A DNA stretch of 61,747 nucleotides, the filler included, from Hausera hauseri (Eukaryota), in the NCBI GenBank assembly GCA_046269625.1. It is 11 parts of 11 records of this genome, joined end to end, with 100 filler letters (N's around TTAATTAATTAA, not from the genome) between each part and the next. Parts side by side here need not be neighbours in the genome. Positions count along the whole stretch, not along the records: positions 10,402 to 15,363 come from JBJURY010377479.1; 10 more parts are not named here. The stretch is one strand, 5' to 3'. The notes beneath the pieces were generated by a model that saw only the letters and a list, made by a program, of their open reading frames with translations, was not told the origin of the DNA and did not search any database. This document shows, piece by piece, positions 1 to 36,269 of the stretch. Numbering within the stretch: the first letter of the stretch is position 1; every line of letters starts with the position of its first letter. Position numbers and translations under genes: made by a program.

Positions 1-318
1 GGTGCGAAATTTCGTGGCGTGTTTCTACTGGATGGTGTGCCGCGTGATTTACGACGCGGTAGCTTTATTTTCAATACACACACTTCATCGTTGCCGGGCG
101 AACATTGGATTGCTGTGTACGTCCACTATCCGACAAACGTCATCAGAGTATTCGATCCGCTCGGATTTTACTACTTGTCATCGTTAGTTTCTCAAATTAA
201 AAGACAATCACCATTGTTATATCGTGTTGAATACAATCGATTTCATTATCAACATCCACTGATCGTATTGTGTGGAAATTATTGCTTACTGTGGCTAACG
301 TTACAGACACTTGGATAA
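1..318 (+). CDS. Polinton/Maverick adenain-like cysteine protease (5' end outside window)
   Basis: Frame +1 open from base 1: GAKFRGVFLLDGVP...IFNTHTSSLPGEHWIAVY...VFDPLG...YN..HYQ....LCGNYCLLWL; His (HW), Asp (FD), Gln and Cys (CG.YC) of the adenoviral-type protease typical of Polintons. Confidence 0.88.
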   Translation, partial: GAKFRGVFLLDGVPRDLRRGSFIFNTHTSSLPGEHWIAVYVHYPTNVIRVFDPLGFYYLSSLVSQIKRQSPLLYRVEYNRFHYQHPLIVLCGNYCLLWLTLQTLG

Positions 319-689
319 ACAATGATAATTGTACTTTGTGTTCATTTTGAGAGAAATACAGTATTTTGTTACACATGCCTTATCACTTTGACGTCCCTTT
401 GCTACACACACGGCACAACTCATTATTTCGTTTTGCATACACGCATGTCTAGCGCGTAACGCACACTTGTTTTACGTCACACCTCACCATTGCACGTGTC
501 AACTCCTCGTATCCCGGCTTTGTCTTCTGCGACGCGACACGCAAATCCGACTGCACCACTAAACTCGCCGTTGTCAAGTTAACCAATGAGCATACGAGCC
601 GCTTCTGATTAATCAATCGGTGCGTGGATGGACCCCCAACCCCCTTTGGCCCAGAACGCTCTTTTTTCCCTACTATGACAGAATTTTTA

Positions 690-1067
690 CGATGCGTTTT
701 TTCGGTTTGTTTGTTCGTTCGGTTGCCATTTTCACCTGGATCCTTTGGTCTGATCGTGAGGCGGCTATAATATGAAACGCTCAACTACTGATGGGTTATG
801 AGCTCAACCCATTTCCATCGCCGTTTGACTTGTGTAAGGGGAAATTTTCCTCCTTGGAAATTTTCCCATCGATTTTTGCTCATGCTCCCATGGTCTGATT
901 GAGTTGCAACCGTGTCCATTAGATTCGCTAACATCGGTTTACCCTTTGTACACATTTTGTCAGTGCTAGCAGCACGTTTCTCGTTACGCGTGGCACATTT
1001 CCTGTTTTGCTTCTTCCTCTTCTAGCGCCTCTCCCTTACATTTCTCAAAGCCGCACCGCTATTAACT
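690..1067 (-). repeat. Probable Polinton terminal repeat region (element end)
   Basis: Non-coding, follows the protease; reverse complement begins AGTTAATAGCGGTGCGG (AG start as in Polinton termini) and aligns by eye with 55567-55940 and partly 56230-56540. Confidence 0.55.
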
Positions 1068-2453
1068 TTTGCTCAGCTCGCCACGCGCTATCGATATCAC
1101 CCGGTCCAAAGTCCATTGCTCGACCTTCTTTTCGGCCGAGGGGGTCATCCGAAATTTTAAGTGACATGTTCAGAATAGCCAATTAGGTGGGGAAAACTAG
1201 TCAACTGACCAATCAGAGAAGTGCGGTGGAGAGCTCACTTCCACCTATGTTTGCATTCAAGAGAGTATTTTATTAAAATAAAGTAAATGATCTTATCATT
1301 TTACTTTCTGAGGTAAATATCATAATTATTTGCTTTCATTCGAACTTAGTCGTCGGTTTGATTATTTATATTCTATGTAAGTGGTGATTGCACATTTGTG
1401 AAACTTGTAATCATGTAGTGTGCGGGCAATGCTTGTCAAACATATTCAGTCCATGTAATCGTACAAATACGTTGTGAACTTAATTTTATAAATAAAATGA
1501 ATATAAAAGTAACTGTTTCATCAAGAATATATGCTTAATAAGTGTTTTATGAGCAAAACTCCGATAATTATTTCATGTATAAACAATGGTCACATGCATA
1601 ATTCATTTCCTACACACTAATTTTTGCTTGATAAAATCACACTTCTTCATGAGTCTAACAAAGTCACGCATATTCAGCTGCGTAAATAAAGTATTGGCTG
1701 TGCAGCTGATGTTTGAATTTGCAGTAGGGTCAAAATGATCGAGACGGCCCATCTAGTGCTAGGATCATTCATTTTACTGACACTATAACTGTGACCAAGA
1801 AAATATATCAATTTTTACCATTAAGTACCTATAATTCAAATATGAAAATTAACAAAAATATTAGTTTCAAAATTTGTATCAAATAGAATAAGATTTGTGA
1901 TCTAATTTTATTTTTGGAAAATAATTAAAATCAATTAGTCTAATGCCAGAAAGTCTGTATATTGAAATTCTCTTATGAAGAAAAAACCCAAATGTATTTG
2001 AGATTCCTAAAGTAGATAAGTGAGTTGGATTGAATAAAGGTGCATTAAAGTGAGCTATATTCATGTTTAAAAAATAAGTGTATTTTATTTCATTGAAATA
2101 AAATGTTTGATTTGCATTATTTTGTGCATTATTATGTATAAAGAACCCATTAAGGAATCAACCAATTTTAAAATGTCACGATACATTGCGTATCATACCA
2201 ATAAACATGTTATAGTTGAAGGTGGGCCCTATACAACACCTGCTATAACAAGAGATTACACTTGAATTTAAAGTTAACTATGCAGGTAAGTTCTAACGTT
2301 CTCATTAGAATGTTTGTACCAAGTTTAAGATGTCTGAACTGTATGCAATATCCTTTGCGGATTTTTAAAAGTCTCGACTTAACTATGAATTTTACACTTG
2401 AATTTAATCCTTACTGTAACTCAAGTCCTTCTTAAGGAGCGACGGAAAAACTA

Positions 2454-3024
2454 TATAACGATTTTAGAATACAACAATATATTTTACAAACAACAAAATA
2501 CCACGACGTACAATTGTCGAATTTGGATCCAAGTAATCTTCGATAACTGCTCAAGTTTCCAAGCGTTTCCACAATCTCATTTCTCTGTTCAACTGTTCCA
2601 AGTAGTTTCCACTATACGACTTCGAATGTGTCAACCTCAAAACTGTATTTATCCAATTGCTCGCTCGAATCATTTCAAATATCAAATCAACAATGTTCGT
2701 TTTACTGTTTTCTAAACCGTCTTATATAGTCGGCTGATTGTGGGTGGAATTATCTGTGAATAATTTTTAATAATTTCTTTTCTAATTTTTCCAATTATCC
2801 GTTGTTGTGGGAGTAATGTTAAACGACTTTCCAGAAATAAAATTATTTTCGACTGTTCAAAATTGTAGGCGTAAGCCAATTAATCATTCAATATTCTTGT
2901 AAATTAATAATCATTCAATAATAATTCCTGCTCCCGATTTCTAATAGTTCAGTTTAAGTTTCGTTTTGTATTTACAATTTGTACATTTCAACTCTCTTAG
3001 ATCTTTTTTAACATTTCTCCTCCC
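2454..3024 (-). mobile_element. 3' LTR plus polypurine tract of an LTR retrotransposon
   Basis: Minus strand GGGAGGAGAAA (3014-3024) immediately followed by TGTTAAAA at 3013; TATA-like CTATATAAG near 2721; far end near 2454 is approximate (TATAACG, possibly decayed TGTAACG). Confidence 0.55.
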
Positions 3025-4130
3025 TGAACGGCACTCTCGGATGTGACCATTGCGTCAGAAGTGGTGCCGTGTCTTAAGAGGTTCAATCGTCCGAGTAAGT
3101 CCGCTTCCGAATCTGACTCATCGTGTGGAGATCGCATTTCTAATTGGTATGCTACATTAGGTCTCGGAGGAAATATCTCCACTATTTTATTTTCCTCATT
3201 GGAAAAATATCACAGTCTCGTAGATTCGGTCCGACATACCGGACAAGGCGTTTTCCCCCTTTTCAGGATCCACGTTTCCAGGCAATATCGACAATATTTA
3301 TAGGTGCAATCCTTATTGTCTAATACTACAAATCCTTGGTAGAGGTCTGCGTCAAATACGAGGCATTCTTACTTTTCGCCTCCATCTAGGTCTATAATAT
3401 CCTGGTCGACTTCAATTCGTTCGAACACAAGTCCTTGTTTGTCCTAGTATATATAGCCATATAAATGTTTTTGCTTTGAGTCTATGGAACTTTTCTTGGG
3501 GTCATCGGATACGGTCTCGATGATTTCCTGTTTATCCAGATCTGGTATTCCTGTTTTCTTGTATTGTTTCTTTAACTAAATTCGGACTTTAGTGTCCACT
3601 GGGATAGTTAGTCGTTTGGTACCGTTTTTCGATTATACCAATTTTTGTATCTTCTCGGGCATAGCCGTTTCCGCTTACGATTCTTCTTGGGATAGTGGAA
3701 ACAAAACATTGCCTCCTTTATCTTGCCTTTGCTTTAATACTCGGCCATGGCGAGTATTCTGGTATATTCTTTAATTTGGCCGAATTCCATTGTTACTATG
3801 GGGGCTGGTTCTTCTCAATTCTTCCTGAGAAAATTTACCTCGGTTTTCGGTGGTTCATAACGAAACTTTCATTCTCCGTTCATTGAGTTCTTCGTCTTTT
3901 GCCGTTTTGATTTAACCTTGGAGCTTGTTATTTCTGGAATATTGGGTACGAGACTGCTTCTAAGTTGATTTATCCCTTCGGTACGGTTATTACTAGCTTT
4001 ATTTTCTTTCTATTTATGCATTCGAAAAGGGAGAGTTTCGTTTTCTGTGCCTTTTGGTTTTCTCTGGTCCTAATTTCTGTAGATTTAACTTCTGTTTCTT
4101 TCTGGTGAATGACTTAATTATGCATGATTC
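2997..4130 (-). pseudogene. Decayed extra ORF of the LTR element containing a RING-HC (C3HC4) finger
   Basis: Manual translation 3390->3180: K*ECLVFDADLYQGFVVLDNKDCTYKYCRYCLETWILKRGKTPCPVCRTESTRL*YF; continues in frame into ORF 2997..3182 that reads through the PPT. Confidence 0.6.
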
Positions 4131-4212
4131 TGAACTGATCATAACTCTTAGGGATTTGCGGCCTTATAAAACGATTTTGCCGTTCTATTCGACCTTGACT
4201 GGTTGATGGAAT

Positions 4213-4684
4213 TTATAAACTTTATATACATGTCTTTTTCAGGACAATAATGTTGCAGAATTTGTTTAACGTTCTTTATGTAACGTTCCAATATTTCGAT
4301 CTTATTAAGATCTTCGTTAGAGTACATCGATCGGGCAGATATTTCGACACGAACTAAACAGTGTCTACTCACCTTTTTGAATCTCGCACACACAATATGT
4401 TGCACTATATGTAAATGTAGATACCCAACTACCAATACAAAGGTAATCTCACAAATGAAGACGTTTTTGACAAAATCATTTGTTTAATCAATTTCTATTG
4501 GATGCTGTTTTTGATAAAGCCTTGTACAAGCTGATGACTTTACAGTCAATATAAAATAACAATAGGATTCTTTTGGAGCAACATATTAAGTTATAAACTT
4601 TATATGCATGTCTTTTTGAGGACAATAATGTTGCAGAATTTGTTCAGCGTTCTTTATTTAACGTTCTAATATTTTGATGTTATT
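4213..4684. repeat. Diverged ~95-bp direct duplication (4213-4306 / 4591-4684), likely transposon relic
   Basis: TTATAAACTTTATAT.CATGTCTTTTT.AGGACAATAATGTTGCAGAATTTGTT.A.CGTTCTTTAT shared by both copies. Confidence 0.7.
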
Positions 4685-5007
4685 TCAATATTACTCGAAT
4701 ATCTGTATTACGTTTTTAAAATGCCGGTATTAACGAAGGCATATTTGGACACGAATACCGGTATTGAATAACCTAATCACAAGTCATTAAATTAAATAGA
4801 ATTTTAAGTAAAACATTCAAGTTACAATAATAATAAATCACAAAAATAAAAACTCCCAAAACACAAATGGGTTAGTCCGTTTCACCCTTCGCAATTTAAG
4901 TTCCAAAAAAACAAGTATTAAAAGAACCATGATAAATTTCAAAAAAAAACAACGATTATATATAAACATTTTTTATTAATGAAAATCCGTTTCAATTATG
5001 CCGACTT

Positions 5008-8000
5008 TCAATGCTTTTTGTTCATTTTGCTTTGATTTGACGAATAGGCGGAATTAGTATGATTTATTGAATAAGGAGAGTAAACTTCTGAATATCGCGA
5101 TCCTGGTGTCAGGCTTGGTGAAGTTGGAGAATAACTTGGCGAAGATGCTAAGCTGCTATGTAATGATGAAGAAGCATTAGGCGAATAATTTGGTGATACT
5201 GGAGAGTAACTTTGTGCGCTCAGTGAATAATTTGGTGTTGTTGGTGAATAGTTAGGAGAAGTTGGCGAATAATTCGGGGAAGTGGGTGAAAAATTCTGCG
5301 AAGCTGGTGAATAATTTGGTGAAGTTGGTGAATAATTCGGTGTTGTCGGTGAATAATTTGGAGAAGCTGGTGAAAAGTTCGGAGACGTTGGTGAATAATT
5401 TGGAGAGGCTGGTGAAAAGTTCGGAGACGTTGGTGAATAATTAGGAGAAGAAGGAGAATAGTTTCTTGAAGGAGAAATGGCTGGACTATATGCTGGAGAT
5501 GTTATCGAGTAATTAGGACTTGTTGGAGTATAACCTGGTGAAGTTGGTGTGTATTTCGGAGTTCTTGGTGAATATGCTGGACTAGTTGGTGAATATCCTG
5601 GGCTAGTTGGTGAGTAAGCAGGACTTGTTGGTGAATATCCCGGACTAGTCGGAGAATAAGCCGGACTTGTTGCTGTATATCCTGGACTAGTTGGTGAATA
5701 TGCAGGACTTGTTGGTGAATATCCTGGACTTGTTGGTGAATATGCAGGACTTGTTGGTGAATATCCTGGACTGGTTGGTGAATATCCTGGACTGGTTGGT
5801 GAATATCCTGGACTGGTTGGTGAATATCCTGGACTGGTTGGAGTGTGTCGTGGACTTGCTGAACTGTAGTTCGGACTTGATGGACTATAAGAAAGTGAAG
5901 TCTGCGACTGACGGAAACCAGATGGGGATAAAGGCGATAAAGCCGGACTCGATCCTGCAGAATATGGACTTAATATTGGACTTTGAGGACTGAAACTCGG
6001 AGACATGAATCCATAATCTGGAGTACGAGGACTGAAATAAGACATAGGACTATAACCGCCATAAACAGGCGTTCCTGCATCAGACACGTTACTAGGAGAA
6101 AAAGCACCTCGATAATCGTTGACAGGAGAATATGTTCCAGTAGGTGAACAACTGGACTGACCATACATTGGAGACATATAACCAGTTTGGAACATATTTT
6201 GAGCAAAACCTCCAATTATGTTGATTTGTTGAGCTTCACTGCATTTCTCAAAATCCATCAAAATATCGAAGGCACCTGTTCCTGCTTTAGCTAGCTGACC
6301 TAACATAATATTTTCCGATACTCCTCTCATTGGATCAACTTCAGCATGAGCTCCAGCGGCCTGTAATATATCGACAGTTTCCTCAAATGAACATCGAGCC
6401 AATGGACCAGTGTCTTGTTTATTGATCCCGTGTCTGTCGATAGACATCAAATGACCTTTTACTGTCATAACATCACATAGTAGAGACAGATGTCTTTTAT
6501 TCATATACGCATTATCAAATGATAGTACGTTATTCAATTCTTTCTCTATAGCATTTCGGGCTGCTTCAATTCCAAGTGTTTCGAAAATTTCAACGATGCT
6601 GTTGCACACTGTTGTTTTGGAATTAACATATCTTTCAGCCAATACTTTTTGTAAACATGATCCATCGGTTTCCAAAAATACATCATCCAAATAATTAATA
6701 TTACCTTCTTTATCGAATTCATAAACTTTTATATCTGCTGTCTCCGGTTTGTGGATATAACACTTTGAAATTTGAGGAATACCTTTCAAACTAATTTCGT
6801 CTAGAATCAAATTTTCTATTAGCTTTAAATGATCACATTCCTCCATGTTATGATTTGATTCTTCCTTTGGATCGAAATTATTGTCAGAAGGATTATAAAT
6901 TCGAATCCTCAGAACGAGGTCAGCATTGTCATCCGGATAATGACATATAATTCCGTTACTAAAGTACTCAACAATTTTTTCAGAAACACCGTCAAGAGTA
7001 ACTAGTTTATCTTCGCACTTTTTCATATCTAACTCAATTCGCAACACGTAAGAACCGATTTTTGTTGCATCAAAATCCGGTAACTCATAATATGTTCTTA
7101 CCCAGTCTCTGTCCTTTTCAATCACCGAATTTTCCGGATCGGGATCGTAATAAATTTCCGATGTCGTAGAAATCATACGCAATGTTGTGTGTTCTAACTG
7201 TGATGCAACAACTTTGGCAAATGTTTCATCTATATCACCTTCCTCTCGACTGAGATATATCGTAAGAGATGGAGTCTTTAAATTTTTTGTAACGTTCAAG
7301 ATTTCCTTCAATCGCGGAACACCAAGAGTAATGTTTTTCGCAGATACACCGGCAAAGTGGAATGTGTTCAAGGTCATTTGTGTAGCTGGTTCACCCAAAC
7401 TTTCAGCAGCCAACGCACCAACCATTTCTCCAGGATTAACAAGTGATTTGTCAAATCGGGATTTAATTTCACCGATTATCCATTCAAAAGCCTTTGAATG
7501 TAGCTTGTAGTTCACAATGACTTTTTTACAACACAGTACACTTCGTATCAAACAGCATAATAAATGGGTGGCATTCGTATTGATAATTTTGCTCATTCGA
7601 TCAGATCTACGGTCAACAATTAACTGCGAGCATAATTTTTTGACTTCATTGATTATTTCTAACGGTGAAATTTCAGTTTTTTCGAGCAGATCGATTTTGA
7701 ATAATTTCTGGGCATTTTGGATGAGGCGATAAATATTGCATGGCAGAGGCACTCTACCATTAGTAGTCGGAACGAGAACTTCTCTCATTAGTTTTTGATC
7801 TGCAACTATATGACTCCATTCTGATTCAAGCAACTCACCAATTTGTTTATTGCAATAAATTTCAGATATAGCATCTTTGCTCAAATGTTTATTCAACATA
7901 ATTTCATCTTCTATGCAAAATCTGTACTCGTTCTCTAACTGTCGTTTGTTTAATTTATAAGTCGGAAGAACTTGAAATTCGACAAAAGCTCCATCCAGTC

Positions 8001-10301
8001 CATCTTCTCCATAAAGGAACTGAATGATCTGATCCATTTGATTTCTGACTGTGCCATCATACATTACCATAATCGATTCCATAGCTTTGATCAATCGTCG
8101 TTGTATATATCCAGTTTCTGCGGTCTTTACGGCGGTATCAATGACACCTTCTCTACCACCCATTGCGTGAAAGAAAAATTCAGTCGGTGGCAATCCATCA
8201 GCATATGATCTAGTAACAAATCCTTTGGATTCTGAACCTAAGTCATCCTTATCAAAATGCGGTAATGTTCGTTTTTGAAATCCAAACGGAATACGCTTTC
8301 CTTCGACGTTCTGTTGACCAACTACAGCCATAACCTGGCAGATATTAATACTTGATCCCTTTGCCCCAGAACTGACCATAAGATTGAAATTGTTGTTCTT
8401 CGGTAACTCTTGTGACACTTTACTCCCGAGATCTTTTCGAGCATTGTTTAATAATGCATTGACCTTATATTCCACTGTTTCACGGTAGCTTTTTCCTGGT
8501 TCACTTTTAATATTTCCTGCACAAGCATCTCCAAGTGTTTCTTCCACACTTTTTGTGCATTTATTAATTCTATTTCTGATTTCCTTTTTCAACCTTAAGT
8601 CAATAGTAGCATCAGCGATGCCAATTGTGTGCCCTTCTATCAATAGCCAGTTGTTTATTACGGTCTGTACATTGTTGAAAAACATGCCAACTTCATCCGC
8701 TGAATGTTCTAAAGCCAAGACATGGATCAAAGATCCTTGACCACTTCCTAAGGTCTTTTTGCATAGCATACCGCATATCAATTCACCATCATCAATTATG
8801 ACATTCGTGTCGAATGGAGATATTCTATTAGTCTCTTCATCTACTTTATCGTCATGTGTCGAATGAAATGCCCTGCAATTAACACGGCCTGGAATTATCG
8901 CTGAAAATAATTGTTTTCCTGTCCACAATTGCTGTGGTTTATAAATGGCTGGCCTTGGCATTTTTCCATCCCACGTTGAAAGATGCATCAGCAGGTTCAT
9001 CATTTCAGATTTGGTGAGAAAAACGTCTCTACGGGTCATTTTATTGGACGCAGTTAGTGTATCCTGTACGATACTCATGACTGGCTTGTTACTTTGCGGT
9101 GTAATTATTAACTTTGTAACACGGGCAAGTTCTGATACTTCTGCTTTTGTTTCAAGAGACTGTGGAAAATGTAAATTCATTTCGTCGCCATCAAAATCTG
9201 CGTTATAAGGTGTTGTGACACTGAGGTTCAATCGAAATGTTGAGAAGGGCAAAACTTTGACTCGATGGCACATCATTGACATTTTGTGCAGAGTTGGCTG
9301 TCGATTAAATACGACAATATCATCATTGAGCATATGCCGTTCAACAATGTAGCCGTTTTGTAATCGCACATCTTTCGTATCTGCTCGCCTTTTGAGATCA
9401 ATTCGCTCGCCGTTTTCCCTGATAACAAATGATGCACCAGGATACATTGAGCCATTGTTGACGAGCTGTTGTAAAAATGCACAATTGTAAGGAGTAACTT
9501 TCTCTGGAAAAGTCAAATTTTGTGCGATACTTTTCGGCACACCGACTTGGTCAAGGTTCAAATACGGATCGGCTGTAATAACAGTTCTCGCGGTATAATC
9601 TGTTCTTTTACCCATTAGATTCGACCGTACTCTGCCATGTTTGCCCTTTAGCCTTTGTTTGATACTTTTCAACGGGCGACCCGATTTCTGTATGGCTGTT
9701 GGTAGCACAGGACTCTCATTGTCGAAGTACGTTCCAACGTGAAACTGTAGTTGATCGATTAAGTCTCGAAGCGCGACAGACGCCGCTCCGTTTTTTTCAG
9801 ACACCTTTATTGATTCATTGACCTTTACTATGTCTGTCAAAATATGAGTCAAGTCATCGTGTGCTCGACCATTCTGCATCACTACAGCAGGTCGAACTGC
9901 TAATGGTGGCACCATTAAAACAGTCAGAATCATATTCTCTGGACGAGAATATTTTGGATCAAAACCCAACAACTTACAGTCATCATTGCTTATACGGCTA
10001 AAAATATCGAAAATTTTTTCGGGTAAAAGAATTTCTTTGCCATTCTTTTTCCCATCTTCAATATTAGTTTCGATGTAATAAGTCAGTTGAGTGCGTTTAT
10101 ATTTTGGTTGAAACGCTTCACATTTCATTTGCTTGTTGTCTTTTTCATCATCAACTTCATTTTTTCCTCCTGCAAAACACCTTTTAGTTTTTTTTGCTAA
10201 TTCATATAGGCTTTCAAATCGTTTGCTGGGATTACTCCTTTTCAGAACTTCTTGTACATCTTTATTTTCCATGTTCACCAGCAATGCGGAACATTCATAG
10301 C
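5008..10301 (-). CDS. POLR2A: RNA polymerase II largest subunit, N-terminus cut by contig end, no introns in 5.3 kb
   Basis: NADFDGDEMN catalytic motif, FNRQPTLHKMSMM, bridge helix FFFHAMGGREG.IDTAVKTAETGYIQRRL, trigger loop EPATQMTLNTFHFAGV, C-terminal heptad repeats; frame open up to the gap (CYECSALLV). Confidence 0.98.
5113..5889 (-). repeat. RPB1 CTD 21-bp heptad tandem repeats (about 35 heptads)
   Basis: YSPTSPG/YSPTSPA block followed by YSPTSPN/FSPASPN block. Confidence 0.95.
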
Positions 10302-10401: not shown

Positions 10402-11556
10402 TTTATATCAAAAATACCTTCAATATATAAAGCAACACCGGAATATTGTAACTTATATTATAATCATTCAGCTCACACTTGTTGCGAACCTACGTTCGGA
10501 GTATCCTACAGAATTCAATATGCAATCGGAACAATAGGTCAGTCATATAGAACATACTTTTCATATCCCGGCACGACTCAGTACATTTACCAACCATATT
10601 TTCTTGCCTCATTTTATATTACAATTATGAGAAATGGGCTGTGTGTTACGGCTGAAACAGAAATTTCTATATCTAAATATCAAGCCATAGAATATTGGAT
10701 TGAAAATAAAATCGATGTTATAAAATGCAAACCAGATCATAAGAAACCATATTTTTGTTGCCCCTTTCCATTTAATAAACACTATCAGATATACTACCGA
10801 ACTACAATCAATAGCTATACGTGGTCAACATGGTCAGATGGATCGGAAATAATGGAATGGACCCCACCAGTAACTACAACCATTCCGACTAAAGCAATAA
10901 CTTCTATTACAAAATTACCGATAAAGAAGCCGACCGCAGCTACAAGAATCATTAAGAAATTGGACGTAGTTGTACAGTGAACACCATATTGGCTTATTAT
11001 CACTTTATCAGACTTGAAGAATACGAATGTAAAATTTAAATGCTCCCTTCACAACAGCATGGTTAGTAAAGGCGTGTTGACTCCGGACAAATCAACATCG
11101 GCCTGTATGCTCTTAAAAGCCGACACTAATTATAAGATCGTTATAACGGAGTTTGATGAGGATAGACAAACTCTAAAAATTATTAGAAAAATAGAGAAAA
11201 CGTTACAATTACCGATAATTGTTACGAATACAGTTATAAAAACAACTGTCATGCAGACTCAAGAAGGAACTTTTAATACATATTTCTGGATGGTTATCAT
11301 CCTAGGTATCCTTTTAGCGCTAAAAATTGTATTATTACCAATAATAATCTATTGTTCTAAAGTAAGACGAAGAATGCGCAAGACCCAAGTATTAATACAA
11401 CAATTAAAATTATTAAGGGAGGATTCCCAAAATGACTCTATAAATGATTTAAGCGCGCCTGTTACGAGTAATGAGATAACCGAAAAGAATGCCAACCTTA
11501 AACGGTCAACCCTACCGTCAATGAATGCCGTATTGTGCTTTAAACATAAAAGATGA
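10402..11556 (+). pseudogene. Type I membrane protein ORF (FnIII-like modules, WSTWS motif, Thr/Pro stalk, TM helix), one in-frame TGA at 10978; in env position of an LTR element
   Basis: Frame open from contig start; ORFs 10627..10980 and 11014..11556 are in the same frame; YQIYYRTTINSYTWSTWS, LLKADTNYKIVIT, TM YFWMVIILGILLALKIVLLPIIIYC followed by KVRRRMRK. Confidence 0.6.
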
Positions 11557-11687
11557 GGCCGCAAAATTTTTAGAGACCTACTATACCCTTAAAAAGCACA
11601 ACAAAGTTGCAAAATCCTTAGCGATCAATAAGAATAATTTCTTTCTAAAAAGAATTTCCTTGTTAATATTGATTTACTTCTTTTCAG

Positions 11688-13089
11688 TTCAAGAAGGAAC
11701 AAAGATGGTCGATAGACCAAAGTCATTTTATTACAACATTACCTCGAACCTTAATGCAACTGCTCAGAAAGATTATATTTATTATGGTGAATGCTCCTTC
11801 ATCCCCAATAATCTGAAAGGCCATCTCACAACCCAAAGAAGTGGACTTATTATTCAATTATCAACTGCTTCAGTCACCTTATCTGATCTTATTGATTTAT
11901 CTAACAAAACTACTTCTGTATACATATCGGTAGTCAGGGAAAAACTCCAGTTAAAGAGCAGAACCCATTCAAATGGAATGACGGATACATTAGAGATCAC
12001 GCCATTTACTACAATCAGATTAGATCAACGTTTTTATAAGAACGTCGCCATAATATTGCGATAAATGGTAAACCGTCTCCAACGATTTGTATAGAGGTTA
12101 CCCCGAGGGAAATATTCCCCCAAATAGATTTCAAGAAAGCTCCTGAGTATCCCATTAAGATGCCTGAAGAATTACAGCTAAGACAAGGACAGTCCTTTAT
12201 AAGACTACCAATAATACAAGAAAATGATATCATCATAATAGCCTCTAATAATGCATACTTAATGAAACCGATCCGTTCTAAGGAACAGGCACTTGTGGAA
12301 GTAACTATTATAAACCTAAATGGAAGTGTTATTTACGATCGAATTATTTGCCCATGGGACCGTATAGACAACTATAATTGTCGTTTTACTGGACTAAACG
12401 AAGCCGAAATAATCGGCCAAGCTGATCAGTATCAAGAAGAAAGGCTTATCCGACAACAAATCGTTGGTAAGATAGTCATAGGGATGAACGTGTTTGAGAT
12501 TAACTTACAAGGCCCATTGTTCGAACCCAACGCTATATTGGGAATCAGAGACGTATTCCATCATAAAGAAATAAACCCAGATAGACAACTTACTCAAGCA
12601 CAGATTCTGATGAAGCACAATAATGGAGATTATCCCTACAGAACCAAAGAAAAAGCCCTTGTCATATTAAAAATCTATCAGCTCATAAACGAGTTTCGTA
12701 TTAAATCAGAAAGTACTTTACCTTCGACATTTTCACCAATGGAAACCCAAGAACTAGCAACAGTCGACCTAATCGAACCACTATCTATTAGTGAGGTAAC
12801 AGACCAAATAGCTTCATCTTTGTCATCAATCCCGTTTAGCAATAATTCGGCAGTCCCTATAATAATGGATTCGACAAAAAAATCCAAGAAAAGATCTTAT
12901 CATGGGACAGAAACCATTACCCTTAAAAGTAAAATCAAAAATAAAGGGTTATGGCTAAACATTCACTCTGCCAATTACCAGTACTCAAATGGTACCTTAA
13001 AAACTTATCCCCTCGCTCTGAGGACAGCGTTGTCTAAGGAGGGAGATGTTGATGCTAATGCCATTGACATCGATGCACATTCTGACTAA
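11688..13089 (+). pseudogene. ORF with degenerate DEDDh exonuclease domain (ISG20/REXO4-like), frameshift near 12050
   Basis: ALVEVTIINLNGSVIYDRIICPWDRIDNYNCRFTGL...IRQQIVGKIVIGMN...IRDVF matches the LARVSIVN..G.V.YD.YV.P...V.DY.T..SGI...G.ILVGH...IRDT pattern; acceptor-like TTTACTTCTTTTCAG ends 11687; reads through PPT into LTR. Confidence 0.65.
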
Positions 13090-13236
13090 CGTACATTCTG
13101 ATCAACAAAATACGATGCACATTTTGATAAATTGATCGAGTATGTACAAATATTTTTCTGACTCTTATGGCATGCAGTAATAAATAAAGAATGAAATTGA
13201 GAGAAGTTGTCATTCAATAATAAAATTTACACTACA
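13036..13236 (+). mobile_element. Polypurine tract and short (190-bp) 3' LTR
   Basis: GAGGACAGCGTTGTCT-AAGGAGGGAGA then TGTTG (13047) ... AATAAA ... CTACA (13236). Confidence 0.7.
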
Positions 13237-13492
13237 AAAATTATTGTTTCTGGAAATAGAATTATAAAATGTAATACAGTAAAAAATAAGTGTGGTAAAC
13301 ATGTGCAATACATAATGAAAAATCAATATGCATTTATTGTGTAAGATTTTCAATTAATTTTCTGAGTCATTTTCACTGAAATGCGGGTACCAGTGGATTC
13401 TCGTCTTCCCTAACGTGGCGCAATAAAAATTGTGACATATCAACATGGCATTTGTTAAATAACCAGAAACAGTGGACAGTCGATTATTAGAC

Positions 13493-14571
13493 ATGCATTA
13501 TTCCACAGCAATTCTGTTGATTCTGTCATTCAGTTATACTGGAACGACTGCGGAAATTAAAGTTCCTGAGTTGACATCACAGACATTTGACGAATTTATC
13601 CAAAACCATGCATTAGTCATGTTCTATACTCCATGGTGTCCCCATTGTCAAGAAGCCAAACCGCATTTCTTTACATGCGCCGCAAAAATGGCAGATATCG
13701 ATAAGAAGTATTTTTTTGGAGTTGTCAATTGTGATAATTCCGAAAATTTCGGTATATTTTGATGTATTGTGACATTTTATTAATATTTATTTTTTAATTA
13801 ATGTATGTTGATATTATATTTCTTATAAACTGTTAACTGATAAATCAATAATCATCAATAATATCCATGAGAAAGTTAACTAAACTAAATAGTTTTCCTG
13901 CATTAGTTTAAAGCAGTTATTCGAAGGATAATCGATAATTGTTCATTTTCTTATATAATTTGAACACCAGAATATGAATACAAAATATACAGGGTGTTCT
14001 TAAATTGACACGAAAGAAAATTCGAATAAATTCAGTAGTTTAAACAGATGTAGTTTTTGTTATATAGTCACATTCATAAATTGATTGACTTTATTCTATT
14101 GCTAATGAAATGATAAAAATTATTATTTTTATATTACTTACTAATTGTTAATTAGGTCTGTGTCGGAAGCAAAAAATCGAAGGCTATCCAACCATAAATC
14201 TCTACCAACCTAAACATGCGGCTGTGACATTTGGAGCAGAGCCAACAGAAGAAAATCTCATGGGGTTTATTAAAAATCCCGAAGACTATATTCTTGGAAA
14301 GGAAGCAACAGAAGAAGTAAGAACCGGTATTGTTGTCAAATAACTTCATCTGAATAGATAAAGGATACGGCATTGAAACATACCAAGTATTTGAACGGTC
14401 TAAATTTTAGTGAATCTGTGGAACATATTCTGCACGCTTTAGTATTTTTCTATGCACCATGGTGTTCTCATTGTCAAGAAACCAAACCGGTTATTGACGA
14501 AGTCGCGGAACAATTAATGTCCAAGGACAGAGCCATATTTGCTGTCAATTGTGAAGATGAAAATAGTAGAA
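13493..14571 (+). CDS. Protein disulfide isomerase family gene (signal peptide + two thioredoxin domains), 3' part not resolved
   Basis: Exons 13493-13751, 14156-14316, 14358-14571 with GT-AG introns (404 and 41 nt) give an open frame: FYTPWCPHC, IEGYPTI, FYAPWCSHC; both domains have a phase-1 intron after VNC. Confidence 0.85.
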
Positions 14572-15796
14572 GTAAATTTATTTGGGAAATATCTTTTAAA
14601 ATATTATTTGTCAATTAAATATATTGGCAACATACAATGCCGTTAATTTTACACAATAACGCCTTGAGTTACTCGTACCTTTTTGTGGAAAATTTTTCGG
14701 TTATTGTGAAGAATTCGATATCAGTTATCTCAAAATTTTGATTGAAAATTATATTATATTTATTTTTTCGCTTGTTTAAATGTATCATTTAAATGTATTT
14801 TGAAAATTAATCTTACAGATCTTTTACAAAATATCCCCAAAGCCCTGGTTCATATAATCCCGAAAATATTCACGGTTCATAAAAACATTTTCACGATTCA
14901 CTTGCTCGGCAAAAGGTCTTTTTTGCTTGTGTGACTTTTTCAAGTTCTACATGTTCTACAAGTACAAAGTTTATCATTTTGCACTTATTCACTTTTCCCC
15001 CGAACATTGTTTTCAACAATTTGTGTCGTATTATTAATCAGAATAAAATTTTAGAACTTGTAGAACTTGTGAAACTCCGATTAGCAGGAAGGTACTGTTC
15101 CTTTGTAGAGCAATTAGTACTCATACTTTCTCCGCCAACTTACCCAGATCATTGTCAACTTTGACCGTCTATCAGTATTCTAGATATCGTTTTGTATGGT
15201 AGGGGAATCTCCGATACAGTAATTTCACGATTAACTGGAACTTCTTGTGCATTTCCTTTTTATGATAATCATGTGGGGAAGTCTGATCATCATATAAATA
15301 AAATCATTCGGCGGAGCCCGCTCGTACCTTTTTGCATGGAACGTACCAAAAGCATAACACTTANNNNNNNNNNNNNNNNNNNNNNNNNNNNNNNNNNNNN
15401 NNNNNNNTTAATTAATTAANNNNNNNNNNNNNNNNNNNNNNNNNNNNNNNNNNNNNNNNNNNNGTACAAATGTGAATACTGAAACAAAAGCTGATAAATT
15501 TTACGTTGTTGAAATGTTGTCAGTTCTCAATTTTTTGTTTCTTGTGCTTTGTAAGTATTATTTGTTGTTCCTGATGATAAATAGACCGTATTGAGATTGT
15601 AGTAAATGGATTTAGTGGATAATGATTATTTTTGTTTAAAAATATATACAATTATCATTGTATTTACCTTTGTTCAAACGTATAATTATTGTAATTATTC
15701 CATTCATGGAAATACGCGATATCTCAGGCTTAATCATGAAACAACAATGGTGTCAGAAGTCCATATGGAAAGATATGTTAACTATTGGATTTATAG

Positions 15797-19345: not shown

Positions 19346-22300
19346 TGTGACCGACTTCCCGGCCGCCCGTCCTTTGTCAGTGGGTCCCACACCATGGTTC
19401 ATTCAATTGGCACGCCATCCAATAGGTCCTGTGACACCTCTTTCGTTTTACTTTTTATTAAATAATTCTCAAATACTGACGCACAATATAACATACTATA
19501 TAGATTCACTGTACGTACACAAATATATTAACATTTTACTGCCCTTTCAAACTTTTACTGAACTCTTAATAACCTACCATTCGTTAATGCCAATGTCCGC
19601 AATTTTTTTCTACTTCAATCCCACAATTGGTTATTCATGTACATTTGCGCATACGTGGTGAAATGGACTCTTCATCCACCATTGGCACCACTAACACAAC
19701 TACCTCTAAACCATCACATTTTGCTTTTCACCAAAAATCAACGACCGTAACCACACCATCTACTTTCACCAGTAATACACCTTCCACCCTGCTAGCCAAA
19801 CACACTTCTCAGTGCACAGAATATTTTATTAATCATTAAAACTATAGCAAAACCTGGCTTAGTTTTCACAAACTTTGGCTGAAGTCTAACAACGTTACTG
19901 ATCCCTTAGCAAAAGCTCATAGTTTACATTCCCTCTTACCAAACACAGTAAAGACTTCTGTTCACGATATTTTAGACATCTTTCAACAAGCTGACCCATA
20001 TATACATATTTATAACGCAGTCTTAAAACTTACCGAACCGTCTATAGATTCCATAATCCATAGATTTTTTAATGATAACGCAATGGGAATACAAAAGCCT
20101 TCAGAGTTCCTGCGTACGTCGTTGACTCACCTACAAACGCTAGATGTAACTAAGCAGCATAATTCAAACCTTCTGCGACGATATTTCTTAAACGCGTTGC
20201 CTATACAAGTTAGGGCACTTCTTACCGTTGTCGAAGAATCTACGGCATTGGATAAATTGGCGAAATTGGCTGATACAGCACATGTAGTGCTACAATCGAA
20301 TTCTCAACCAATTGTATCAGCAGCGATTACGACAAGCGACAATCAACTCAATACAACAATGGAGCAACAGTTGAGCCAATTACGCGTTAAAAATTTAGCA
20401 CTATGCCAGACAATAAATAACATTAATAATAGGTTGAACGATCTTTCATTACCACGACGAAGTGTTTTTATTCATAATCATATTCATTCTGTTTCCAGAA
20501 ACAGGTCACCATCGCCTACACGATCCTTTGTGTGCTATTACCATAGCAAATTTCATAATAAAGCTAATAAATGCTGTTTAGAGTGAAGATATTACACTCC
20601 ACATTTACATTCAGATGACCGTTTGCATCTACCATGCGAAATTTGGATTCCACGCTCAGAAATGTCTTTCAGGCTGCAACTATAAGAACAACGCTAACCA
20701 TACTACCGACAGACGTTCTATTTCCCCTAGTAATAGTCGGCCGATCTCACCAATCCAAAAAAACTAATTTCGCCGCCAGTATGCACGGCAGAGTCTGGTA
20801 AAGGGAAATTCTCTAATACTACCTGCCGACACTTTTTTTGCAGTCTTCACACTAAAGGATTCAATAACCACACCAACAACTCAACCCATAGACTTCCTTA
20901 TCGACACAGACGTTGCGGTTTCTTTGCTCCCACTCACTTTCCCTGTAAAAAATTCACCATTCAAAGCTAAATCCTTATTTAAGACTTTAGGACAACTGCT
21001 AGACATTTCAGGTGCATCTAAATTGTCGGTCATCTTACCAAACTTTCAGTCCACGTTTCATTGGACATTTATCGTCGCTAACCTCGGCACAGCAATCCTA
21101 GGTTCGGATTTCTTATCGCACTGTAATCTCTTAGTTGAATGCAAACAACAATGTGTGAAACGTAACACTAATGGATATCTTACCGAGTGAAAAAATAGTA
21201 TATCTTCTAAGGCACAAACAATCTTCCCGAGGAAGCCTATACTCAAAAATCCTGTAAGTAATCCAAACTTCTTCGAAAGCATTTTTCATTTTGTAAATTT
21301 TTTAATGCTAATATCGATATTCAGTCGAGATTTGGTTTTGACAACTATGATTGCGTTGGTTCAGTACATTCACTAGACAAAATTACCTCTTCAAACACTA
21401 TTTTTAATACTACTATTCTGCATCAAATTCCCCTTGATTTCAATAACTCGCAAATATCACTCGTCACTGCACATATTGACTCAACACCATCAACATCACC
21501 CAGTCTCTCGCAATTGCCTGCAAGTCTACGGCAATACATACACACTTTATGACCCCGATTAATCCAGAAGGACCGAACCTTCACACCTACAAACAGCACT
21601 TTTCATCACATCATAACGCAACACCAAAGACATATTCGTCAAAAGGTACGTCCATTGTCATCTCGTCGTAGGCAAGCTGTCGAAGCGGAATTTCTAGACC
21701 TTGAACGCTCCGGCATTGTACGCAGGTTTAAATGGCCGTGGTCTTCGCTTTACACGTTGTCCAAATAAGATGGATACTTCCGACCATGCGGTGATTACCG
21801 TCAGCTAAACACTTTAACTGTTATGGATGCATATCCTTTATCATTAAGGATATCCTGCACCGGCTCAATTCCTCTACAGTATATTCAACCATAGACTTAG
21901 CCAAGGCATATCATCAAATTTCTGCAGGACCCGAGGACATCGAGAAAACGGCCGTTACGACACCTTTCGGCCTGTGAAAATACATTTATATGCCTTTTGG
22001 TTTACGCAACGCTGTTCAGATTTCCAACATCACGTCGATTCCATCCTCTCGGATTTCACTTCCGCGCATCCATATATCGACAATATCTTGATTGCTTCAT
22101 CTTCAATCAAACAGCATGAGGAACACCTCCGTTCTATTTTCAAACGACTCAACCACCATAATTTATAAATTAATTTTACGAAATGTCACTTCTTCCAAAA
22201 GCATATTAACTTTCTCGGACACATAATTTCAGCAAATAGTCATTCTCCTCAGCCAGAACGTGTTGATGCTCTCAAGAGTATACAACTACCTAAAACAACA

Positions 22301-22727
22301 ACAGAAATGAGAAGCTTTTTGTGAACTTTGCATTTTGTTCTCAAGTATGTGCCGTATTGCTCTGAACTTACCGCACCATTTGCTCACTTAAGCGGCGGCA
22401 AAAACATCAACCAATTCAGTGGACACCTGACCTGGTCATAAGTTTCATAAGCTACGCGAAGGAATTAAGACAGTCGACATTCTCGCTTTCCCCAAGCCTG
22501 ATGCGGAACTCATCCTTACTACAGACGTGTCAACCACTGCGGTAGGTGCGGTGCTTCACCAAATCCTCAAAGAAAAAATATCAACCGTTGGAATTTTTTC
22601 TCGTAAGCTAACATCCCCTCAATCTAGATATTCAACGTTCGATAGAAAATTATTGGCCATCGTTCTTGCTTTAAAGCATTTCTCCCACCTACTTGTCGCT
22701 CGCCATTTTACCATACAGACCGATCAC
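19346..22727 (+). mobile_element. Decayed Ty3/gypsy element, family B (5' LTR ~19346-19625, gag, protease, RT, RNase H)
   Basis: gag KPSEFLR...CYYH.KF...A.KC, AAAAAAC slippery site near 20760, FLIDT, DLAKAYHQI, YIDNILIAS, TD.STTAVGAVL, YSTFDRKLLA. Confidence 0.9.
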
Positions 22728-22827
22728 NNNNNNNNNNNNNNNNNNNNNNNNNNNNNNNNNNNNNNNNNNNNTTAATTAATTAANNNNNNNNNNNNNNNNN
22801 NNNNNNNNNNNNNNNNNNNNNNNNNNN

Positions 22828-25800
22828 TGTCTTTTATCAATTTCGACTCAAATGCTTTCCCGCAGTCTGTATGTATTTCTTTTGGTGCTCCATATTTGAG
22901 GATCTATTTCTTTTCTATCTCTGCTTTGATGGTTGCTTCGTCTTGCCTTGGTATAGCAATTAGGGTTAGGTATCTATTGTACTGATCTATCATTGCTAAA
23001 ATGTACCATTTTTTTCATGTCTCCTTCATTGGTCCACAGATATCTATATATTTTTTCTCGAATAGCTTATTTGCTGATAGGGTCACTGTTTCTTCCTTCG
23101 TGCTCATTGTCAAGGTTTTGCTTTGCTTTTTTTGTCTGGACTGCTTGTCGTAGGTTGTCCATGTCACAGTTAATGTCAATGTATTTTGTTACCTTTTCTG
23201 ATCCTGCGTGGGACAGCATGACATAATTGTGTGTTATCATTTCTACGAGTCTGTTCGTCGGTATCCAAATCTTACCTGTTCGTTTTTCTATTATTCAATC
23301 CTCTAGTATAAATCTTCCTTGTTTTCTTCGGGCAATGCTTTCTTTCATTTCTTCAATTTCCTTGCTATCCTTCTTGTATTGGTGTGTTTCTACTGTTCTA
23401 CGACGTTTATAATTCGAGTCTTGCTTTTCTACATTTTGGTGTCGTCGTGTTGTTGTAGACATTGGCTGCATGTTTCGCAACTCGTGCGGGATAGCATATC
23501 TGCGTTCGCATGATCTTCGCCTTTTCTGTACTCCAGATTGATGTTTAGACTGAATAGGTAGTTGATCCCCGTCTGAAATTGGGCTGTTATAGGTTTTTTT
23601 GTCTTTCCCATTTGTGGTCCGTTCTTAATGTGAACCGTTTCCAGTATATGTAATGGTTGAAATGTTGACAGAAATAATACATGGCCAGTAGTTTTTTCTG
23701 AGTTATACAATATCCTTTTACATGGTTGTTCATTGTTTGTGATACGTACGCAATAACTCTCTCGCGCCCCAAACTATCTTTCTGTGATAGTACCACCCCA
23801 ATTGTGTCAAAGCTTGCGTCCGCATCGAGGATAAATTCTCTATCGAAATCAGAGAAACCTAGTATTGGTGGTGTGGCTAAAGCTCTTTTCACTGACTCAA
23901 AAGACTTGTTACATTGCTCGGTACATATTAGTTTCTTGTTATTCAATTTGCATAGTTGCTCCAATGTCTTGACCTTTGTTGCGTAACCTTGGATAAATAT
24001 GCTATAGTAGTTGCAGATCCCTAAGAAGCTTCTCAATTTCTTGACACATTTTGGTTTCTCAAAGGACTTAATTGCTTCCGGTCTTGACGGATCTGTCTGC
24101 ATCCCCTTCTTATTCACTATGTGCCCTAAAAATTTTACTTCTTTCTTACGGATGTGATATTTCTTTGGGTTTATTCTGAGACCTGTTTGCGTGATCCGCT
24201 GCAATACCTTTTCTAGTATCCTATAATGCTCTTCTAGAGTCTTACAGAAGATTAGTATATCATCTAGGTATACCACTGTTTGTTCAATGTCCCCTAGTAC
24301 TTTATTCATTAGTTCTTGGAAGGTGCCCGGAGCTGCTGCTATGCCGAATGGCATCCTGTTAAAACAGAACTGTCCTAATTTGGTTGAAAATGCTGTCTTC
24401 AATTTGGAGTCTTCCTCTAACTCGACTTGGTAGTATGCATTCCCTAGGTCGATTGACGTGAAAACCTTTGTCCCGTATAACCTGTCCAATATCTCTACCA
24501 CGTTAGGCATGAGGAAGGTCTGCCGTTCCGTTATAAGATTCGGCTGTGTGAAGTCCAAGCATATTCTGACATCGTTCTTGTCTTTCTTCCATACGCATAT
24601 CATTGGTGTATTCCATGCTGGGTTACATGGCTTGATAATGTCGTTTTCTCATAGGTTTCGGATGGCCTCGTCAATCTTTTTTTCTAGGTTCACTAGTTGC
24701 CTCTGAGGTTTGATATTAATCGGGGCTCCTGTCGTGTCTATTCGGTGTTTGATGAGAGATGTGCACCTTATATCCCACTTGTCGGCCATGAATATTTCTG
24801 GGTATTTCTGTATAATGTTGAGTAGCTCTTTGTTGTCACCCACATGAAGAGCTTCCTTTGCCCTGTGTACTTGTTCTTGATTAGTCACCTTACGGCCGAA
24901 CTTGTCTTCCAGGTTGAATATATCTTGCTGTAATGTCTCCGTTTCCATGCGTTTCCATCCCAGTTCTATTCCAAATGCCTTTTGCAGGTCCACATCACCT
25001 ATTATTTCTGGGAGTAATTCCGATACTACCAGGAATGTCACACGTCTCCTTAAATCCTTGATTTCTACGTCTGTTGTAAATGTGCACAGGCAATCTAAAG
25101 GGCTATTATTCGCGCATCGTAGCGTGGTATCTGATTTATCTATGTGTGTGTTTGCAAGTTTATCCACGGTCTTTTTGCTTATGACGTTTACCCCGGCCCC
25201 TGTGTCCAATAAGCAATCTGCCCATCTGTCTTGTATCTTTAATTTGATTCCTGGTCGTCCATTAAACTTCATATATGATATCTGTTCGACATACAATTCT
25301 TCCAGCGTAGAGATCTGCGTATCGCTCCCACTTTCTTCCATTCCGTTGAAGGATACTTCCTCGAAATTTTCCGTACTTTTTCCTATGTCCTTTTATCCAT
25401 CGCTATATCTCCGTGCCCCCTTCTTCTTGATCCGTCTATACTGTTTGATATACTACTAATACTATAAATAACGATATTTTAGGAGACTGAATCTATTGTA
25501 GTGCCCCGATTTGCTCCACTTTTATCGAGGCTCTACCTTTTGTGGCAACTGACTCCTGATCAGATTCTGTTTCTTCTTCCTCTACGTTTGCGACTTCCCC
25601 CCATCTTCTGTCCACGTTATCCCCGTACCTTCTTTTGACTCTGTACGTATCCCATCCTAGTTCTCTTGCCCCTTCTGTTGGGACTTGACTATTCAGTTGG
25701 GGAATCCTGCAAAAGTCCGATCAGAAGTGTGGGAACAATCAGAATTTCAAAATTGTGTATATAAAAGAGTGTGCGCGTGTATATATAAAATGGAGTGTGT

Positions 25801-35207: not shown

Positions 35208-35649
35208 CGTTTTCGAAAGTATGAAATGCATTATCTGCAAACGCATGTACAGTTTTCGTTGAATGGTCTGGTGTTGTTGACCACACCCAAGTACAGTTAT
35301 CGTGTAAAGCAGGCATCAAGTGAAAATGCTGCGAAACTTGGTGATGCTTTAAGTCAATTAAACATGGACTTAAAGTTGAAAGAACCGGCTTTACAAAAGT
35401 AATATGTCGTTTTACCGGCCGCAAAANNNNNNNNNNTAAAATGTCTAATGTGCCCGATGACTTAAAGTTGTCGACTCAACATTAAATTGCAGGCATACAA
35501 AGAAAAGGTGTCAAAAGCCCGATTAGGTGTTTATCCGAAGCACTTTTTGATTATCAATAAATGTTGTTGTTGTTGTTGTTTTGATTTTCTTCTTCTTCAA
35601 CAATGAGTATAAATATACATGTGTAATGGGCTTTTCATTAATAATGATA

Positions 35650-36116
35650 ATGAATTATGTAAAAATTATTTTGACGGATAAAAGTGCAACTGTACCGAAA
35701 CGTGTTACGGCAAGCAGTGCGGGCTACGATGTGTTTTCCAATGTCAATACGACAATTCTGGATAGCACAATCAAATGCATAACGACTGGGATTCGATTGG
35801 CGATTCCACCCAGTTACTATGGCCAACTTTTATCGAAAAGAGGACTGGCAAAACTCGGACTGCCGCTTGGGAGCGGTGGTGTCATTGGTTCAGACTTTCG
35901 TGGTGAAATTAAGGTGTTGTTGGAAAAACTATCCGGGCTATTGTATGATATTGCGAAAGGCAGTGCATTTGTACAAATCGTTTTTCTTCGATGTGAAGAG
36001 GCGGAATTTAGTGTAATGTCACCGGAACAATGGGATAGTTCTGTGTCAATGAAGCAACTCGAAATGAACGCAAAGAATTTGGCTTTGGCGATACGGACAA
36101 AGCCACCTATGTTTAG
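35650..36116 (+). pseudogene. Trimeric dUTPase (Polinton-borne), frameshift before motif 5
   Basis: SAGYD, GQLLSKRGLA, GVIGSDFRGEI, FVQ; alternative frame gives NERKEFGFGDTDKATYV* ending 36116. Confidence 0.85.
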
Positions 36117-36269
36117 TGATTGTGATAATAAGAGTAATAATAATAGTTAGTTGTTTTTTGTGTTATAAACAAAAAGTGATTCTGTGCATGATAATTAATG
36201 CAGACAGCATTTACAGATATTGAAACTTTTCAAGATTATGTCCGGTAGATTATAAAGGAATTATGAGTT

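Follow-up and report, generated by a model that had tools for sequence, protein, structure and literature searches.

Exonuclease genes that are expressed separately downstream of pol are known from the LTR retroelements of bdelloid rotifers, i.e. from the Vesta and Juno elements and the Terminons (PMC5408684), and these are the described cargo genes most similar to the one analyzed here. The bdelloid ORF3 encodes a 3'-5' exonuclease of the RNase D-like DEDDy type (DEED) whose catalytic residues are intact and that occurs in lieu of env; ORF3s are expressed from spliced messages, and no activity has been demonstrated for the exonuclease (PMC5408684). In the available part of a review citing this work, DnaQ-like domains figure as known accessories (PMC6338049). 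The family described below differs from bdelloid ORF3 in that its exonuclease is of the DEDDh type, is fused to a second domain, is found together with env and has a catalytically dead branch.

The scaffold of such elements also has precedents. GAG-ENV-POL errantiviruses with a glycoprotein of the HSV/gB type are known from Nematoda, Bryozoa and Platyhelminthes, as stated in the accessible text of PMC13524379, and they share with two of our five relative loci, L001 and L004, a gB/chuvirus-type glycoprotein upstream of a Ty3/gypsy pol. Unlike them, L001 and L004 read env and pol in a single frame and possess two protease-like domains, a post-integrase membrane tail and further 3' ORFs. A search for DEDD in the main text of that report gave no match, and nuclease cargo is not named there. 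The planarian element Burro resembles the present loci in its accessory ORFs and in one huge polyprotein that includes env, read in frame with gag before it and pol after it, but it exceeds 30 kb with LTRs, and its cargo in the available text comprises BIR, BCL2, MATH and ankyrin domains, with no exonuclease named (PMC6431247). Troyka, with CG termini and no env according to the sections seen of PMC12440569, was rejected as a match. Known already are the GAG-ENV-POL errantivirus scaffold and, with the bdelloid DEDDy enzymes, exonuclease cargo as such. The literature searched did not turn up, for such elements, an exonuclease that is of the ISG20/REXO4 type, fused to a cupin or dead, and so neither the cupin-DEDDh cargo nor its pseudo-enzyme branch was found there; Sacco et al. 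2022 and Repbase may bear on this point.

The window, by which we mean the whole stretch of DNA analyzed, comprises 61,747 nt from Hausera hauseri (GCA_046269625.1) in 11 contigs joined by N44-TTAATTAATTAA-N44 spacers. The gene of interest lies on contig JBJURY010377479.1 (window 10402-15363, 4962 nt), in which no gag, no pol and no second LTR were found. The analysis shows that a multicopy retroelement carries at its 3' end an accessory gene, with a layout of N-terminal domain, ISG20/REXO4-like DEDDh domain and variable tail, and that 11705-13089 is one copy of this gene, decayed and broken in frame. As an overall explanation we lean towards a two-domain exonuclease cargo that lost catalysis in an ancestor, may have acted as a host-interaction factor and in this copy has decayed.

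The repetitive nature of the locus emerges from depth values of a single run, X1, possibly from the source sample and consisting of contigs only; depth is not equated here with copy number. Depth ranges from 22 to 1410 across 10402-13223 and is 5 across 13224-13721; the locus belongs to a repeat dispersed in many copies, and host DNA at single-copy depth adjoins it at the end of the element. An LTR end at 13236, where the stretch of the first-pass annotation stops, is not borne out by the data, as depth is at the single-copy level from 13224 onward. Outside the element, a single-copy host gene with introns that encodes a protein disulfide isomerase/TXNDC5-like protein (13493-14580, +; depth in run X1 mostly 5-9) begins about 270 nt past the element end on the same strand. 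Further downstream, 14718-15215 is a second high-copy repeat with depth up to 1208 and an inverted repeat (14933-14961 and 15049-15077), possibly a MITE.

At the 3' end of the element, a GAGGAC motif and a polypurine tract AAGGAGGGAGA occupy 13020-13046 (+), where depth peaks at 380 (bin 12892-13057). The purine tract proper (13036-13046) is followed by TGTTG up to 13051, in the order GAGGAC..AAGGAGGGAGA and TGTTG, and it thus lies directly ahead of a presumed 3' LTR starting with TG, a feature of Ty3/gypsy elements. The same GGAC...AA..GG..TGTTG arrangement stands behind the exonuclease genes of L002 and L003. The 3' LTR, or a remnant of it, probably extends over 13047-13223 (+), starting with TGTTG, containing AATAAA signals and ending at about 13205-13236. 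No second copy of it was detected within the window, the contig and the retrieved loci being cut short of the 5' end, and the depth of 22 over this segment is below that of the element interior, unlike a normal LTR. The presumed LTRs of L002 (2149-2367) and L003 (2311-2382) carry short tandem repeats with a AATCTTTATCA core at a spacing of 41-49 nt.

The five relative loci (L001-L005) were retrieved from metagenome contigs, four of the five from one assembly. In L001 and L004 the cargo gene follows a single ORF of more than 3000 aa (2-9037 and 1-9621, respectively), in which a Monjiviricetes-type fusion glycoprotein (PF24664, E 9e-84 in L001 and 5e-94 in L004) precedes protease, reverse transcriptase, RNase H, integrase and a membrane tail. 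As judged by this domain order, L001 and L004 are Ty3/gypsy elements with env before pol; in their fetched parts, whose 5' ends are cut, neither a gag Pfam match nor a CCHC knuckle was seen. Linkage to pol is observed only for catalytically intact relatives, at two loci from one assembly. L004 has an extra block of signal, module and transmembrane segment between its two proteases, and a coiled-coil-like ORF is located before the exonuclease gene in L001 and after it in L004, with AG just ahead of each ATG. The assignment of the window gene as retrotransposon cargo is borne out by its multicopy state, by the polypurine tract with TG and by relatives downstream of gypsy pol; single-copy host DNA without a link to LTRs, the situation that would have spoken against it, is not what we find. 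The window element itself is very probably an env-before-pol Ty3/gypsy element whose cargo gene was made from spliced subgenomic RNA.

In the window, the cargo gene is preceded by a membrane-protein frame (10402-11556, +) that is truncated by the contig start at 10402 and contains an in-frame stop at 10978-10980. In L005, too, a membrane-protein frame is located directly upstream of the cargo gene. The window frame consists of a Cys-rich part with a WSTWS motif (10822-10836), a Thr-rich stalk, a beta module, one transmembrane segment and a tail, and its depth in run X1 is 430-1410. With an HMM for the tail module of L001 and L004 it ranked first of 685 window ORFs (E 6.9e-5), and with the prompting module left out it still reached E 0.0053, or 12.5 bits versus 10.8 for the best shuffle. 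It also ranked first in a phmmer search with the whole L004 tail (E 0.087), and the L001 tail gave no match to it. The frame had no Pfam match above cut-off, no PDB match and no longer homologue, and matches to septin and LSm2 were rejected as noise. The WSTWS motif recalls what we take to be the WSxWS motif of cytokine receptors, a reading for which the database searches yielded no support. With weak to moderate support, the frame probably represents the membrane tail that follows integrase in the polyprotein of the element. The receptor-like protein that had been paired with the exonuclease is read as this tail and probably not as a separate partner.

The cargo gene occupies two overlapping frames. 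The candidate splice acceptor at 11668-11687 (+) has 14 pyrimidines in the 20 positions before CAG, and the pyrimidine-rich CAG ending at 11687 that had been noted as a strong acceptor is present, with the first ATG after it at 11705. This ATG opens ORF A, of 119 codons and with its stop at 12064 (11705-12064, +), in which an IPNxLK motif occurs. ORF B (12040-13089, +) is an open frame of 349 codons that includes the purine tract, in agreement with the approximately 340 codons noted previously as open through this tract; the implied single frame from 11688 to 13089 is not present, as ORF A and the exonuclease lie in different frames. An HMM of the N-terminal part of the relatives, built without the window rows, ranked ORF A first among the 685 window ORFs (E 3.6e-16, and 4.4e-14 when its best-matching relative, P0001, was left out as well), and accordingly ORF A and ORF B are parts of one gene. 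ORF A scored 49-56 bits on this profile, versus at most 8.6 bits for 1000 shuffles, and is 30% identical to the N-terminus of P0001 (E 1.7e-10); a GerE match under the cut-off (E 0.0009) was rejected in favor of the family HMM. For the N-terminal domain a cupin fold is likely, though not certain: for residues 1-150 of the relative P0010, all ten structural neighbors of a predicted model (pLDDT 0.57) were cupin-type or related, with TM scores of 0.48-0.60, and no cupin Pfam family matched in 21 family rows. The variable C-terminal tail of ORF B runs through the purine tract (12701-13089, +; stop at 13087-13089), and an HMM of the C-termini of relatives gave no match to its end.

The frame break falls into the overlap at 12040-12064 (+). 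That both frames are real, either with the cupin-like domain made alone or with both parts joined by recoding or splicing, so that the break would not reflect decay, is a very improbable reading. Both frames are open, and among the 12 of 17 entries listed for run X1 there is no indel at 12040-12064, which proves nothing, as short contigs may not bridge this segment. All complete relatives, dead ones included, are single-frame, however, and the overlap contains no canonical slippery heptamer (XXXYYYZ). Decay remains the preferred reading: the window copy is in all likelihood a fossil from which full-length protein is not produced. In the upstream frame, 24 of the 29 listed differences from run X1 are non-synonymous (40 of 718 differences between the run and the window were listed in total), and with its stop, its frame break and these mostly non-synonymous differences the window copy looks to be evolving neutrally. 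One contig of run X1 with a depth of 84 skips 11861-12546, and hence many copies may be able to do without the gene and a variant lacking most of it may be common.

Spliced expression of the cargo gene is plausible. An acceptor-like YAG is located at most 2 nt before the start codon in three of the five relatives (L001, L004 and L005) and is absent from L002 and L003. An ORF of its own on the 3' side, preceded by a candidate acceptor, would suit an accessory gene expressed from spliced RNA.

The exonuclease domain (12220-12700, +) is assigned by three routes. The best solved relatives of ORF B by sequence are ISG20 (E 1.4e-5) and ISG20L2 (E 3.1e-5), its language-model features fall into RNase_T clusters (score 0.95), and with a model folded from an alignment with 34 relatives, intact ones among them (pLDDT 80.5), ISG20 and ISG20L2 take ranks 1-3 in Foldseek (E 3e-8 to 7e-8). 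A single-sequence model was poor (pLDDT 45), and neither Pfam nor a word-index search produced a match for ORF B. The DEDDh fold proposed at the outset is upheld by these matches, and a lack of RNase T/DEDDh similarity, which would have undermined it, was not encountered. In domain fold and sequence the protein resembles ISG20, ISG20L2 and REXO4 (PDB 1WLJ, 7YW5), and intact relatives from elements share with these the H-x4-D form of ExoIII. The window copy differs from them in having all five catalytic positions replaced, and the element family differs from ISG20 in the replacement of the Met14 and Arg53 equivalents, in the extra N-terminal cupin-like domain and in its carriage on a mobile element.

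The catalytic residues of ISG20 are Asp11, Glu13, Asp94, His149 and Asp154 (PMC9157404, available portion). The corresponding positions in ORF B hold Ala (12241), Asn (12247), Ile (12499), Tyr (12637) and Lys (12652). In ExoI it is the Asp and Glu present in 18 intact relatives that have given way to Ala and Asn, while the ExoII Asp is matched by Ile in an ungapped or by Asn in a gapped alignment, with a Glu one residue earlier, and in ExoIII both ends of H-x4-D are changed. The motifs IIIASNN and YRTKEKA read exactly as first described for ExoI and ExoIII, and none of the five catalytic residues is retained at the matched positions, as expected for a DEDDh pseudo-enzyme. By its sequence, the domain is thus derived from active DEDDh enzymes without being one of them, since all catalytic features fail. 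With a net charge of -2, nothing about it suggests a basic surface for RNA binding, and binding or shielding of RNA by the window protein would be a guess.

A HMMER scan of 1.84 billion representatives returned 37 matches, most of them proteins of 420-560 aa with about 150-200 residues ahead of the nuclease domain, and relatives were absent from the phages, viral contigs and prokaryote genomes searched. Among 31 rows of the element family, 18 keep the set D-E-D/E-H-D, ten are dead (at most one catalytic residue) and three are truncated; that most relatives appear catalytically intact had escaped the first-pass annotation. RNase_T (PF00929) matched in 12 of 21 rows and DNA_pol_A_exo1 weakly in one of the 21. 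The intact relatives carry H-x4-D and not the arrangement of RNase D-like DEDDy enzymes (Tyr as general base, DEED motif).

In phylogenetic analysis the window domain is placed inside an element clade of 30 rows (SH-aLRT 99) and not with host proteins, and within this clade an intact pair branches first from the host root, which makes catalysis the older state. Note that these were quick trees only, with the catalytic columns included, the first without P0024 and the second without P0003, P0008, P0012, P0025, P0024, P0034 and P0035. Four of the proteins from the search, P0003, P0008, P0012 and P0025, are 730-800 aa long and have a hydrophobic N-terminus, and each contains four DEDDh domains in tandem, of which 15 out of the total of 16 lack the full catalytic set; they are probably a separate, host family of pseudo-nucleases. 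The occurrence of such host-like dead proteins in the same search could be taken to mean that the window gene belongs to a host gene family or to another repeat, behind which the purine tract lies by chance, and that account would also fit the contig without pol or LTR pair, as well as the presence in the window, counting both strands, of 22 similar purine tracts with TG after them. Even so we hold it to be most improbable, because the fuller GGAC-PPT-TGT pattern occurs only twice in the window, at the end of the cargo gene and inside another gypsy element, and stands behind the gene in L002 and L003, because family members follow gypsy pol, because the window domain groups with the element clade, and because the gene is multicopy and without introns. 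Retroelement cargo is therefore retained as the reading of the gene.

The loss of catalysis can be dated relative to the decay of the window copy. In the ten dead rows each catalytic column is kept in no or one row (0-10%), but eleven other columns (P, R, H, G, E, D, G, G, R, D and Y) are kept in 8-10 of the ten (80-100%), and several of these are not conserved in host REXO4-like proteins and are thus specific to the family. Three dead relatives are open frames that are 42-56% identical to one another in the domain, and dead open frames measure 330-562 aa. In P0001, the best match, ExoI contains the Ala and the Asn of the window copy, whose five catalytic codons are no fewer than 8 changes, out of 15 bases, away from canonical ones (P 6e-4 under random decay of 15%). 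The retention of family-specific residues in dead members and the ExoI replacements shared with P0001 together argue that catalytic loss predates the decay of the window copy, and the question of whether the acidic residues were lost before this copy arose is probably to be answered in the affirmative. Catalysis was, we are fairly confident, lost in a functioning ancestor and not through decay. One or more such losses may have occurred; the dead rows are on long branches, and the pairing of the window copy with P0001 may reflect long-branch attraction.

For the dead members it can be argued that no function is left at all, i.e. that some lineages came to manage without the captured nuclease, whose dead forms persist as remnants subject to drift. 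The long branches of the dead rows, the broken window copy and the deletion variant at depth 84 agree with this, as does the finding that the resequenced env-like and GDSL ORF3s of bdelloids show, within genomes, no departure from neutrality (PMC5408684). Drift is nonetheless distinctly unlikely in view of the selective nature of the loss, with catalytic columns emptied next to eleven columns that are largely kept, and of the length and mutual divergence of the dead open frames.

We favor a role in host interaction, followed by that of a helper on RNA:DNA hybrids and, in third place, by the drifting remnant. In the first role, which we put forward tentatively and by analogy, intact members would trim or destroy nucleic acids that alert the host, be it small RNAs or by-products of reverse transcription, and dead members, keeping the folded two-domain body, would bind that substrate or partner, or serve as its decoy, without cutting. 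The arenavirus NP ExoN offers a parallel as a DEDD-fold domain in virus-host conflict, active and immunosuppressive, and Maelstrom offers another as a DEDD fold without DEDD motif that binds RNA in the piRNA pathway (both from the accessible text of PMC7968707). The two belong to another subfamily, both with an ECHC zinc finger that is not evident in the window domain, and they serve as analogy only. As a helper of replication, intact members would instead remove RNA from RNA:DNA hybrids or shorten 3' ends during reverse transcription, together with the RNase H of the element, and dead members would be left with a contact to pol that stimulates it or serves as a scaffold. In hybrids, human REXO4 degrades the RNA, and it also binds and stimulates RNase H1 (PMC12915616, part seen), and the equivalents of ISG20 Met14 and Arg53, residues proposed to read the 2'-OH (PMC9157404, available portion), are replaced in all 18 intact rows (F/C and E/G/M/N), so that substrate preference may have moved. 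Against this role, the cargo gene is a separate ORF unfused to pol, 10 of the 28 complete rows do without catalysis, and the deletion variant looks common; we consider it unlikely. Host interaction thus remains the first choice. Its fullest form, an accessory family of invertebrate env-gypsy elements that combines cupin and ISG20 domains, was captured once from a host REXO4/ISG20-like gene, acts against host defense and was converted at least once into selected dead decoys, is possible but doubtful as a whole. If true, retroelements would have their own equivalent of the arenavirus ExoN, one that comes as a natural pair of active and dead forms.

The interest of these observations resides in the family, as the window copy is only a fossil. 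Suppressors of host defense encoded by animal LTR retroelements are, to our knowledge, poorly known, and the family represents an independent capture, by envelope-carrying elements, of a nuclease class that is antiviral in vertebrates. With natural active and natural dead members at hand, the purpose of the catalytic site and what survives without it can be asked directly, and a dead branch in which the rest of the protein is kept hints at a non-cutting role. The family also points to elements of 13-25 kb that have env before pol, a membrane tail and, on the 3' side, several accessory ORFs, and that seem to be unannotated.

Elsewhere in the window, further gypsy gag/pol pieces are found at 21511-25392, 36958-38267, 47553-48837, 52222-54026 and 57605-61422; none of them has an env match to L001 or L004, and no env match was obtained anywhere within the window. 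Rfam gave no match in the window or in the five relative loci. A dUTPase ORF is located at 35551-36150. The last contig has a GC content of 54%, versus 34-42% in the others, and may derive from another organism. On a separate contig, 5008-10300 (-) encodes an intron-free, divergent largest subunit of RNA polymerase II (RPB1) that suggests an animal as its source, in that it scores 1345 bits against entries of 1970 aa versus 1067 bits against entries of 1733 aa, which from their lengths we take to be the mammalian and the budding yeast protein, respectively.
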